Below, piece by piece: positions 13,104-13,347 of a DNA stretch of 64,000 nucleotides. The notes beneath the pieces were generated by a model, which was not told the DNA's origin, did not search any database, and saw nothing but the letters and a program-made list of their open reading frames with translations. Within the stretch, counting starts at the first letter, position 1, and the number at the start of each line of letters is the position of its first letter. Made by a program: the position numbers and the translations under genes. The DNA is from Candidatus Woesearchaeota archaeon (GTDB lineage: Archaea > Nanobdellota > Nanobdellia > Woesearchaeales > UBA10216). The DNA is taken from NCBI GenBank assembly GCA_016192915.1, contig JACPTF010000010.1:48804-112803 (forward strand), written 5' to 3'.

Positions 13104-13347
13104 GGACCTGTAGCTCAGCTTGGACAGAGCGACAGCCTTCTAACAACCTTTTACTCGCCTGCTGGCGAGCAAAAGCTTGACCAAACCCAAATCGGCAGAG
13201 GCCGATTGGGCCAGTCGTCGCAAGACGACGTGGGAACGGAATGAAGGACAGCTGAAGGTCGTGGGTTCAAACAGCCCTTTTGTTCGCAGCGGCTCACAAA
13301 AGCGCTGGCGGAAAACGAATAAAGGCTTGAAAGTCCCACCAGGTCCG
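13104..13347 (+). tRNA. tRNA-Arg(TCT) with two putative introns. One is after the anticodon loop (~13143-13249) and one is in the T-loop (~13272-13333).
   Basis: Exon 1 is GGACCTG-TA-GCTC..GAGC-G-ACAGC-CTTCTA(A). Exon 2 is A-GCTGA-AGGTC-GTGGG-TTCAAA. Exon 3 is T-CCCAC-CAGGTCC-G. The acceptor and T stems pair perfectly only across these three segments. Confidence 0.5.

Follow-up and report, generated by a model that had tools for sequence, protein, structure and literature searches.

Positions 13104-13347 of the window (the whole 64,000-nt stretch of DNA analyzed here), on the forward strand, very probably carry a functional tRNA-Arg(UCU) gene of the Woesearchaeota (DPANN), from which two bulge-helix-bulge (BHB) introns would be removed by endonuclease splicing. 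The gene alone is one more multi-intron tRNA gene in a known class, and the combination of introns at positions 37/38 and 59/60 is already known in archaea. More unusual is the makeup of the introns: their bodies are copies of two short, lineage-specific hairpin repeat families, which turn over rapidly between related genomes and have further copies elsewhere than in introns. The coordinates of all features are listed in Table 1.

Table 1. Features of the tRNA-Arg(UCU) locus and the other tRNA genes of the window
Feature	Coordinates	Strand	Description
TATA-like box TTTAAATA	13071-13078	+	Lies 25 nt before the 5' end of tRNA-Arg
Exon 1	13104-13142	+	Positions 1-37: acceptor 5' strand, D arm, anticodon stem 5' strand, loop CUUCUA, anticodon UCU
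Intron 1	13143-13249	+	107 nt, position 37/38, relaxed BHB
Intron module in intron 1	13144-13189	+	Hairpin CAAC-C-CTTTT...AAAAG-C-TTG, then ACCAAA tail
Nested double-hairpin element	13186-13234	+	CCCAAATCGGC-AGAG-GCCGATTGGG + CCAGTCGTC-GCAA-GACGACGTGGG; R2 match 74.8 bits (member of the R2 training set)
Exon 2	13250-13271	+	Positions 38-59: anticodon stem 3' strand GCUGA, variable loop AGGUC, GUGGG (T stem 5' strand), UUCAAA (T-loop)
Intron 2	13272-13333	+	62 nt, position 59/60, strict hBHBh' (3-4-3)
Exon 3	13334-13347	+	Positions 60-73: U60, CCCAC (T stem 3' strand), CAGGUCC (acceptor 3' strand), discriminator G73
tRNA-Cys(GCA)	13351-13423	+	Lacks an intron; follows tRNA-Arg after 3 nt; ARAGORN, Rfam 66.6 bits
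tRNA-Ala(CGC)	15355-15473		45-nt intron; ARAGORN
tRNA-Thr(CGT)	41645-41760		43-nt intron
Class-II tRNA ("candidate Leu")	42128-42013	-	25-nt intron at 59/60; apparent GAA anticodon
tRNA-Gly(UCC)	49364-49494		59-nt intron at 49400-49458

Exons and Spliced Cloverleaf of the tRNA-Arg(UCU) Gene

When the three exons were joined, they gave a 75-nt cloverleaf that ARAGORN identified as tRNA-Arg(tct). Read from the sequence, the acceptor stem consists of GGACCTG (13104-13110) and CAGGTCC (13340-13346), and the T stem of GTGGG (13261-13265) and CCCAC (13335-13339). A previous reading of the locus, made from the sequence only, had proposed that these stems form by the joining of three segments, and this was confirmed, the inserts between the segments being exactly 107 and 62 nt. 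The insert sites (marked by a slash) are CTTCTA/A in the anticodon loop and TTCAAA/T in the T-loop, and the latter places the second insert between positions 59 and 60; the first insert is thus canonical and the second interrupts the T-loop after TTCAAA, as had been described. Removal of the inserts restores a canonical cloverleaf with conserved tertiary nucleotides, since U8, A14, G18G19, A20, U33, A37, U54U55C56, and A58 are all present in the spliced 75-mer. The anticodon stem contains an A27.A43 mismatch, and a purine-purine combination was found at the same pair in all seven close relatives. CCA is not encoded at the 3' end of the sequence. All three exons follow one another in order on a single strand over 244 nt, which is not the arrangement of a split or permuted tRNA gene.

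The unspliced locus was not called by ARAGORN, with or without its intron mode, and gave no match to the Rfam tRNA model even at E ≤ 10. These misses are expected because the gene is doubly interrupted; we therefore rejected them as evidence against the gene and regard them as a limit of the tools. When only intron 1 was removed, ARAGORN called no tRNA, and when only intron 2 was removed, it made a "tRNA-Gln" call, which is spurious. A covariance-model search that found no tRNA had been named earlier as a refutation of the gene. Such a search indeed found nothing at the unspliced locus, yet the gene is very probably real, and the test is invalid as stated because the gene is invisible to a plain tRNA model. 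The locus shows that an essential tRNA of DPANN genomes escapes the standard tRNA finders. Since AGA and AGG account for 625 of the 890 arginine codons (70%) in the long ORFs of the window, annotations of such metagenome-assembled genomes (MAGs) would list tRNA-Arg(UCU) as absent, which would be an error.

BHB Structures at the Two Pairs of Predicted Splice Junctions

In intron 2, the predicted cuts (13271/13272 and 13333/13334) lie in a strict BHB whose outer helix is the 5-bp T stem. Its central helix pairs TTCA (13266-13269) with TGAA (13328-13331), its bulges are AAC (13270-13272) and AGT (13332-13334), and its inner helix pairs AGCC (13273-13276) with GGCT (13324-13327; 4 bp). This structure is contained in the minimum-free-energy fold, and with the 59/60 junctions fixed, a strict BHB appeared in 41 of 200,000 intron shuffles (P = 2e-4). 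In five related Woesearchaeota with differing introns, 92.9% of the cells of the BHB were paired, and both sides of the inner helix had changed in a compensatory manner in six of eight pairs across the five genomes. The register control for this covariation was clean, with only 35-55% pairing in slid registers. The same 59/60 site is used in L001, L003, L006, L007, L083, the class-II tRNA of the window, and the tRNA-Ala of L004, the last of which was read by eye.

The BHB of intron 1 is relaxed. The placement of this intron at 13144-13250 is equally possible, since the same A stands at each of its junctions. The outer helix is the anticodon stem, and the 4-bp central helix, CTTC (13137-13140) with GAAG (13243-13246), is flanked by a 3-nt 5' bulge (UAA, 13141-13143) and a 4-nt 3' bulge (GACA, 13247-13250). 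This corresponds to a recognized relaxed form, bulges of 1-4 nt being listed as accepted (PMC3239211). The structure also departs from a strict BHB in that a 63-nt linker (13180-13242) runs from the inner hairpin to the central helix on the strand facing the 5' bulge. The CUUC/GAAG central helix is common to the window, L001, L002, L003, and L006; the motif is strict 3-4-3 in L001, L003, and L006, and the extra bulge nucleotide is also present in L002. Other registers examined by hand (CCUU/AAGG and UUCU/AGGA) were rejected; none was strict 3-4-3 with an intact anticodon stem, and the relaxed motif is therefore reported here.

These geometries agree with the sequence-only reading in that both introns are of the BHB type, strict at 59/60 and relaxed at 37/38. 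The evidence offered there, strong hairpins in both inserts, did not hold: the two hairpins, ATCGGC/GCCGAT (13191-13206) and GTCGTC/GACGAC (13214-13229), both lie in intron 1 and neither in intron 2, they belong to a nested repeat and not to a BHB, and the second, given as a 7-bp GTCGTCG/CGACGAC hairpin, has 6 bp.

Intron Bodies and Hairpin Repeat Families

The body of intron 1 opens with a copy of an intron module (13144-13189) that adjoins the 5' splice-site bulge and contains a conserved C.C mismatch. Its match to our model R1 (53.7 bits) is expected by construction because this copy is among the sequences from which R1 was built; independently of that match, covariation in the module showed 96.7% pairing, with both sides changed in six of nine pairs. 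The interior of intron 2 (13272-13317) is a variant of the same module (R1 match 46.8 bits, likewise a training member). In the window, R1 matched both Arg introns and the Ala, Thr, and Gly introns, and in the relatives it matched the Arg and Ala introns of L002, L004, L006, and L007; most of these are training sequences, and the independent matches are the Ala introns of L004 and L007 and the non-intronic copies. The module was found in 37/38 introns (Arg, Ala, Thr, and Gly), in a 59/60 intron (Arg), and in tRNA leaders, trailers, spacers, and intergenic DNA. Similar introns therefore occur in different tRNA species and positions, which is the pattern of a transposed tRNA-intron family of the Thermoproteales type.

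The extra length of intron 1 is accounted for by a nested double-hairpin element of about 48 nt (13186-13234), which is absent from intron 1 of L002 and L006. Evidence independent of the R2 training copy comes from the other copies, at 56251-56301(-), 49115-49161(-), and 16038-16087(-) in the window and in L002, L004, and L007. Repeats of the two families are thus found also in tRNA flanks and intergenic DNA and, in one relative, in frame within a coding sequence; in the relatives, the double-hairpin element lies in frame inside coding sequence or at a gene start. In L002 it forms an in-frame 16-codon insertion in a conserved dtdA-like gene. The possibility that this 48-nt insertion is a spliced intron was rejected by hand inspection, in which its flanks formed no BHB; the insertion is therefore probably translated, not spliced. 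In an Rfam search at E ≤ 10, tRNA-Cys was the only family matched in the two regions with repeats, 13050-13450 and 56150-56420, and reading the introns for a C/D-box guide RNA revealed no UGAUGA and no properly spaced CUGA boxes.

One explanation, which is compatible with the spliced-gene reading, is that the gene is functional and that a mobile hairpin element, bringing its own BHB or creating one, has recently inserted at both intron sites. We give this nearly, but not quite, an even chance. It would explain the presence of the same module at 37/38 and 59/60, in tRNA flanks, in spacers, and in intergenic DNA, and the presence of the 59/60 intron in five of the seven close relatives and its absence from the other two. 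The closest match to intron 2 is the 59/60 intron of tRNA-Leu(CAA) in another genome, L084 (43 of 51 nt identical), which suggests that introns move between tRNA genes; also, the 8 nt just before the intergenic module copy at 7425-7457 are those that end exon 1 of tRNA-Ala. The same likeness may, however, reflect tRNA genes recombining with one another or common structural constraints on the BHB inner helix, and the repeats could not be tied to any transposase, integrase, or reverse transcriptase.

As a tentative model, in which our confidence is below even, we propose that two short mobile hairpin repeat families create, exchange, and enlarge BHB tRNA introns in this Woesearchaeota lineage. 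Family 1, the hairpin and A-tail module, would form the BHB inner helix, and family 2, the 48-nt double-hairpin element, would nest within module-built introns. If this is true, the locus captures the origin of non-canonical tRNA introns as it happens today; the mechanism of tRNA intron gain has been described as unknown (PMC4033280; PMC4090602). The 59/60 intron varies in presence among genomes with 88-96% identical topo VI A, and variants common to different tRNA genes, together with repeat-built introns, offer a tractable natural system for studying BHB intron gain, movement, and lengthening.

Exon Conservation Among Orthologs and Alternative Explanations

In seven close relatives (L001-L007), 71-74 of the 75 exon nucleotides are identical to those of the window, exon 1 being identical or nearly so, whereas the introns are nearly unalignable, with lengths of 11-107 nt for intron 1 and 0-62 nt for intron 2. 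Across 11 orthologs, the ranges are 0-107 and 0-62 nt, respectively. Conserved exons with varying or absent introns are the pattern expected of BHB introns. Orthologs without the T-loop intron matched the Rfam tRNA model with 52.4 bits (L002, which differs from the spliced 75-mer by 1 nt), 56 bits (L004), 58.2 bits (L008), 67.2 bits (L048), and 70.7 bits (L059). The earlier claim of a tRNA-Arg split by two introns is thus supported by the ARAGORN call on the spliced 75-mer, the BHB geometry, exon conservation, covariation, and the Rfam matches of the orthologs.

A pattern scan of metagenomes found only three loci. L083, which has both introns, represents one more member of the clade, and two identical contigs carry a tRNA-Arg(CCU) with introns in the D-loop and at 59/60.

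The locus might instead be a dead tRNA-Arg gene with two repeat insertions that are never removed, another gene supplying tRNA-Arg(UCU). The intron bodies are repeats that are present also outside introns, and the A27.A43 mismatch and the relaxed BHB of intron 1 would fit this reading, as would the apparent decay or alteration of the anticodon arm in the neighboring class-II tRNA. Even so, we consider a pseudogene improbable because the exons are kept in seven genomes while the intron lengths vary, and because orthologs lacking the T-loop intron score 52-71 bits. Moreover, wherever the inserts are present they sit precisely at 37/38 and 59/60, tRNA-Cys remains closely linked to the gene in relatives, and compensatory changes keep the junction BHB, which unspliced insertions would have no reason to do. 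That three unrelated segments assemble as a cloverleaf by chance, with no gene present, would fit the failure of ARAGORN and the Rfam tRNA model to detect the unspliced locus, but is effectively refuted by the same exon conservation (the same exons stand beside the same neighbors in at least eight related genomes), by the strong Rfam tRNA matches of orthologs with one or no intron, and by the BHB covariation and shuffle result. Removal of the inserts by another route, namely group I or II self-splicing or DNA-level excision without a BHB endonuclease, has a negligible probability: some archaea, Woesearchaeota among them, do have group I introns (PMC6125680), but inserts of 62 and 107 nt are too short for group I/II ribozymes, no Rfam intron family matched at E ≤ 10, and the junctions have exact BHB geometry.

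Neighboring tRNA Genes, Promoter, and Host

A T5 run (13424-13428) follows tRNA-Cys, and the Arg-Cys pairing is kept in L001, L003, L006, and L083. The two genes are probably co-transcribed, with termination at the T5 run, and the TATA-like box is the putative promoter of the unit; TTTAAATA also precedes tRNA-Ala at an equal spacing of 25 nt. Introns were found in five of the six tRNA genes of the window (Arg, Ala, Thr, Gly, and class-II), tRNA-Cys being the exception, which accords with a previous estimate of four or five of six; the intron suspected in a candidate tRNA-Leu proved to be the 59/60 intron of the class-II tRNA. The notion of an intron-rich tRNA set therefore stands; the permissive endonuclease that accompanied it is not required by the T-loop intron alone, which has a strict 3-4-3 BHB, and only the relaxed 37/38 junction, with its 4-nt 3' bulge, hints at tolerance.

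The host is archaeal: its Topo VI A is 88-96% identical to those of groundwater Woesearchaeota MAGs, and the PfkB protein of the window matches NCBI HYY73_03320 (Candidatus Woesearchaeota) at 100% identity. Neither EndA nor RtcB genes were found among 10 scanned ORFs of the window of a size suitable for EndA, and the same scan confirmed a D-aminoacyl-tRNA deacylase at 7696-8547. An exact-match lookup of a 52-aa zinc-ribbon protein returned no match.

Proposed Splicing Pathway

The gene would be transcribed together with tRNA-Cys, probably from the TATA-like box to the T5 run. In the precursor, each intron would pair through its 3' end: intron 1 with the anticodon loop (CUUC/GAAG), and intron 2 with the four bases that open the T-loop (UUCA/UGAA). 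These pairings would set the four cut sites (13142/13143, 13249/13250, 13271/13272, and 13333/13334), each in a bulge beside a 4-bp helix. The archaeal splicing endonuclease EndA would cleave each motif in its two bulges, the three exons would be joined by an RtcB-type ligase, and the introns would be released, probably as circles. RNase P and RNase Z would trim the ends and CCA would be added, to give a mature 75-nt tRNA that reads AGA/AGG codons.

Comparison With Known Systems

Introns at 59/60 and multi-intron tRNAs have been documented in ARMAN-2, the Thermoproteales, and other DPANN archaea (PMC3239211; PMC4090602; PMC4033280; PMC5829648). In ARMAN-2 (Ca. Micrarchaeum), pre-tRNA-Cys(GCA) has a 59/60 intron and pre-tRNA-Pro(GGG) has introns at 53/54 and 59/60 (Fujishima et al., 2011, PMC3239211), and its DPANN endonuclease cleaves a 59/60 intron in vitro (PMC3239211). 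The present gene is similar in its DPANN host and BHB-bounded 59/60 intron, the motif being strict hBHBh' there in ARMAN-2 tRNA-Pro also (PMC3239211). It differs in phylum, tRNA species, intron sequences, and the combination of 37/38 with 59/60, and its introns are 107 and 62 nt in length, compared with 13-25 nt in ARMAN-2 (PMC3239211). The ARMAN-2 enzyme is of the three-unit epsilon2 type (PMC3239211). In DPANN archaea, disruption of tRNA genes has been associated with an alpha4-type EndA that has an L3 insertion (Kaneta et al., 2018, PMC5829648); our link to this type is by taxonomy only, because no EndA was detected among the window ORFs scanned. In the same study, tRNAscan-SE 2.0 was applied to the Woesearchaeota genome RBG_13_36_6, and the present gene and lineage are not described in it (PMC5829648).

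In the Thermoproteales, a single tRNA gene can carry up to three BHB introns, which lie at both canonical and non-canonical sites (Sugahara 2008 and Fujishima 2010, summarized in PMC4090602 and PMC4033280), and near-identical introns in different tRNAs and positions have been read as intron transposition (PMC4090602; PMC4033280). Similarly, the Arg, Ala, Thr, and Gly introns here share one module, which occupies two different tRNA positions. In contrast to these hyperthermophilic crenarchaeotes, the host is a mesophilic groundwater DPANN archaeon, and the module is also present in tRNA flanks and intergenic DNA; a non-exhaustive literature search found no earlier report of this. Methanopyrus kandleri pre-tRNA-Glu(UUC) likewise combines one canonical with one non-canonical intron, the latter an HBh' intron in the D-loop, and EndA removes the two independently (PMC5829648). 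There, the relaxed motif belongs to the non-canonical intron, whereas here it belongs to the canonical one and the T-loop motif is strict.

Rickettsia palindromic elements and MITE/REP-type repeats are short palindromic repeats. The double-hairpin element resembles them in that it is short (about 48 nt), structured, repeated, lineage-specific, and located in intergenic DNA and, in L002, in frame within a gene; its presence in some genomes and absence from others suggest that it may be mobile. We know of no sequence relation to these repeats, and, unlike those, its copies also lie inside tRNA introns and nested in another repeat.

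Structure of the tRNA-Arg(UCU) gene

The locus at 13104–13347 is very probably a functional tRNA-Arg(UCU) gene from which two introns would be spliced. The sequence-only reading had claimed that perfect acceptor and T stems arise only when three segments are joined, and this was confirmed: the cloverleaf needs all three exons, and the inserts between them are exactly 107 nt and 62 nt long. The D and anticodon arms are normal and lie 3' of the acceptor 5' strand. The joined exons (75 nt) carry U8, A14, G18G19, A20, U33, A37, U54U55C56, and A58, have no encoded CCA, and were called tRNA-Arg(tct) by ARAGORN, in agreement with the identity proposed earlier. 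Because AGA and AGG account for 70% of the arginine codons in the long ORFs of the window, a tRNA-Arg(UCU) is needed. The top pair of the anticodon stem, 27:43 (window 13132 and 13255), is an A.A mismatch. A purine–purine mismatch (A.A, A.G, or G.A) also occurs at this position in all seven close relatives, so we regard it as a lineage trait rather than damage; it is a Watson–Crick A:U pair in the related loci L008, L048, L050, and L059.

The unspliced locus gave no ARAGORN call with the intron option on or off, and the Rfam tRNA model did not match it at a threshold as loose as E ≤ 10. A covariance-model search that found no tRNA had been suggested as a refutation of the gene. Orthologs without the T-loop intron do match the model clearly (L002, 52.4; L004, 56; L008, 58.2; L050, 59.2; L048, 67.2; and L059, 70.7 bits). 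The unspliced gene is invisible to both tools, and the test would therefore give a false negative here.

Topoisomerase VI subunits B and A are encoded just upstream of tRNA-Arg. The archaeal origin of the host was directly evident: subunit A is 88–96% identical to its counterparts in groundwater Candidatus Woesearchaeota MAGs, and the PfkB kinase of the window is 100% identical to the NCBI protein HYY73_03320 (Candidatus Woesearchaeota). Judging from these identities, the host is a DPANN archaeon. The G+C content of the window is 47.6%.

Features of the window and of related loci, with their positions
Feature	Position	Strand	Remarks
tRNA-Arg(UCU) exons	13104–13142, 13250–13271, 13334–13347	+
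Acceptor stem	GGACCTG 13104–13110 with CAGGTCC 13340–13346	+	Read from sequence
T stem	GTGGG 13261–13265 with CCCAC 13335–13339	+	Read from sequence
Intron 1 central helix	CTTC 13137–13140 with GAAG 13243–13246	+	CTTC is anticodon-loop C32–C35
Intron 1 bulges	5' UAA; 3' GACA 13247–13250	+	3' bulge 4 nt instead of 3
Intron 2 outer helix			T stem
Intron 2 central helix	TTCA 13266–13269 with TGAA 13328–13331	+
Intron 2 bulges	AAC 13270–13272, AGT 13332–13334	+
Intron 2 inner helix	AGCC 13273–13276 with GGCT 13324–13327	+
tRNA-Ala(CGC)	15355–15473		One 37/38 intron
tRNA-Thr(CGU)	41645–41760		One 37/38 intron
tRNA-Gly(UCC)	49364–49494		One 37/38 intron
Class-II tRNA (long variable arm)	42128–42013	-	25-nt 59/60 intron 42051–42027, strict BHB
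Hairpin module, intronic	13144–13189, 13272–13317, 15402–15436(-), 41688–41723(-), 49402–49441
Hairpin module, tRNA-Ala trailer	15320–15353	-	R1 covariance model
Hairpin module, just upstream of tRNA-Thr	41762–41794		Opposite orientation; R1 covariance model
Hairpin module, intergenic	7425–7457		R1 covariance model
Double-hairpin element, 49 nt	13186–13234		Accounts for extra length of intron 1
Double-hairpin element, other window copies	56251–56301(-), 49115–49161(-), 16038–16087(-)
Double-hairpin element, relatives	L002 6626–6673(-); L004 14905–14953; L007 1716–1767, 13383–13429

Splice-site motifs and predicted processing

We applied the standard bulge-helix-bulge (BHB) geometry, in which two 3-nt bulges on opposite strands flank a 4-bp helix and the cut follows bulge nucleotide 2. 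The T-loop insert, at position 59/60, fits this geometry perfectly. Its BHB and the acceptor stem were both present in the unconstrained minimum-free-energy fold of the 244-nt precursor (z = −3.96 vs shuffles), and the motif arose by chance in 41 of 200,000 intron shuffles with the exons held fixed. The first insert occupies the canonical position 37/38, where the predicted motif is a relaxed BHB, because the 3' bulge has 4 nt and, on the 3' strand, a 63-nt stretch lies between the central helix and the inner hairpin (13144–13179). The earlier assignment of a canonical insert after the anticodon loop and a second in the T-loop, both of the BHB type, thus held. The hairpins cited in its favor did not: both lie in insert 1 (13191–13206 and 13214–13229) rather than one in each insert, GTCGTCG/CGACGAC forms 6 bp instead of 7 bp, and neither is a splicing motif.

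A TATA-like sequence, TTTAAATA, is located at 13071–13078, 25 nt upstream of the tRNA-Arg 5' end, and tRNA-Ala has such a box at the same spacing. tRNA-Cys starts 3 nt past the tRNA-Arg discriminator base and is followed by a T5 run. Based on these features, the two genes are likely to be transcribed as a dicistronic precursor. EndA would cleave this precursor between 13142 and 13143, 13249 and 13250, 13271 and 13272, and 13333 and 13334, and an RtcB-type ligase would then join the tRNA-Arg exons, as in the archaeal splicing scheme reviewed previously (PMC4090602, PMC3239211). As there is no overlap between the two BHB motifs, no fixed order of intron removal is required. The permissive endonuclease proposed earlier is at most hinted at by the relaxed motif of the canonical intron; the BHB of the non-canonical intron is strict, and that intron by itself requires no such enzyme.

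Comparison with relatives

A topoisomerase VI A search yielded 80 Woesearchaeota/Nanoarchaeia loci, and 11 tRNA-Arg(UCU) genes, including that of the window, were parsed.

Intron lengths (nt) in the parsed tRNA-Arg(UCU) genes
Locus	Intron 1 (37/38)	Intron 2 (59/60)
Window	107	62
L001	17	49
L002	59	0
L003	16	38
L004	40	0
L006	56	54
L007	19	32
L008	11	0
L050	15	0
L048	0	0
L059	0	0

The exons of L001–L007 are identical to those of the window at 71–74 of 75 positions (L002 differs at 1), while the introns are mostly unalignable. We aligned the 59/60 BHB cores of the five genomes carrying that intron; 92.9% of cells were paired and six of the eight inner-helix pairs were altered on both sides, values with some bias toward structure because the cores were trimmed at the predicted junctions. 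When the 3' partner was shifted by 1–3 columns, pairing fell to 35–55%. Despite the trimming bias, this register control and the compensatory changes argue strongly for the predicted motif. The intron 1 motif is strict (3-4-3) in L001, L003, and L006, and one additional bulge nucleotide is common to the window and L002.

These data contradict the view that tRNA-Arg is a pseudogene disrupted by repeats, since the exons are conserved while the introns turn over, and the BHB is maintained through compensatory changes. A chance arrangement resembling a cloverleaf is excluded by the orthologs in relatives, and self-splicing introns by the insert size and the lack of any Rfam intron match (E ≤ 10). 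The earlier observation was confirmed and its interpretation supported.

Both tRNA-Arg introns are also present in L083, a clade member from a metagenome scan. The same scan gave a metagenomic tRNA-Arg(CCU) (L081/L082) with introns in the D-loop and at 59/60 but none at 37/38. In more distant Woesearchaeota, the non-canonical tRNA-Arg(UCU) introns are in the D-loop or at other sites; six such genes (L012, L016, L025, L027, L029, and L052) have D-loop and 37/38 introns, and ARAGORN wrongly assigned them to other tRNAs.

The two-intron tRNA-Arg(UCU) of the window is a new member of a documented kind. ARMAN-2, also a DPANN archaeon, has 59/60 introns, as in the window tRNA-Arg, in tRNA-Cys (cleaved in vitro) and tRNA-Pro (53/54 and 59/60) (PMC3239211). 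Thermoproteales likewise have several introns, up to three, in one tRNA gene, as well as intron transposition (PMC4090602, PMC4033280, PMC8450103). In work that covered a Woesearchaeote, Kaneta et al. (PMC5829648) linked DPANN EndAs with an L3 loop to more tRNA gene disruption and reported incomplete tRNA sets needing manual curation. As a case of a phenomenon already known, the window gene is ordinary, although its lineage is poorly catalogued in this respect.

Other tRNA genes of the window

Six introns, two of them at 59/60, occur in five of the six tRNA genes, tRNA-Cys having none. This bears out the intron-rich set (four or five of the six) claimed earlier, with canonical introns in tRNA-Ala, tRNA-Thr, and tRNA-Gly. 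The candidate tRNA-Leu of that reading is indeed an intron-bearing class-II tRNA, but its anticodon is GAA (Phe). When spliced, it forms a perfect class-II cloverleaf with G73; its anticodon stem contains a U.U mismatch, and tRNA-Leu(CAA) is its positional ortholog in the related locus L084. Gene decay, a change of isoacceptor, or a missense tRNA could each account for these features.

Repeat elements and possible intron origin

One hairpin module is common to both tRNA-Arg introns and the Ala, Thr, and Gly introns. A ACCAAAAA tail follows its hairpin, (Y)(R)A-C-CTTTTT...AAAAAG-C-T(Y)(R), in which the C.C mismatch never varies; in the covariation analysis, pairing was 96.7%, and six of nine pairs were altered on both sides. 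The non-intronic window copies are the module or a short form, the hairpin plus ATCAAAAAACG. The module recurs around tRNA genes in L001–L007, and matches in relatives lie in Arg–Cys spacers, Cys leaders, Ala trailers, and the topoisomerase VI B/A junction of L001. In the region 7416–7457, the intergenic copy (7425–7457) comes after CCTTCGCA, an exact match to the 8 nt that end tRNA-Ala(CGC) exon 1, and the copy may come from an intron-containing tRNA-Ala. The module is also inserted a few codons into the topoisomerase VI A gene (L001, 150–330) and a zinc-ribbon gene (L084, about 2560–2670), where the first 15–25 nt of the gene are duplicated downstream, giving a new start codon.

Intron 2 (13272–13333) is identical at 43 of 51 nt to the 59/60 intron in the L084 tRNA-Leu(CAA) (about 2365–2510), including an exact 19-mer with the run AAAAGCGCTGGCGGAAAAC. 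It resembles none of the orthologous Arg introns as closely, which suggests intron transfer between T-loops of different tRNA genes. A separate double-hairpin element is about 48 nt long and consists of two tandem hairpins, whose stems vary among copies by compensatory changes. The L084 copy sits within the loop of a hairpin module at the duplicated gene start. The shared module, the nested element, and the Arg/Leu likeness point, tentatively, to introns that pass from one tRNA gene to another and lengthen by repeat insertion. Such a repeat origin would be a moderately interesting addition.

The L004 copy of the element appears, as read by eye, inside a roughly 100-nt 59/60 intron of tRNA-Ala. 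The L002 copy is a 48-nt in-frame insertion between GSTE and KEW of a conserved motif in D-aminoacyl-tRNA deacylase; the window ortholog (7696–8547, -) lacks it. The flanks of this insertion form no BHB, so it is probably translated. A window copy of the element is 15 nt upstream of the start codon of a 1274-aa ORF (52411–56235, -), which, to go by its translation alone, looks like a secretion/archaellum-type ATPase interrupted by an intein-like insert.
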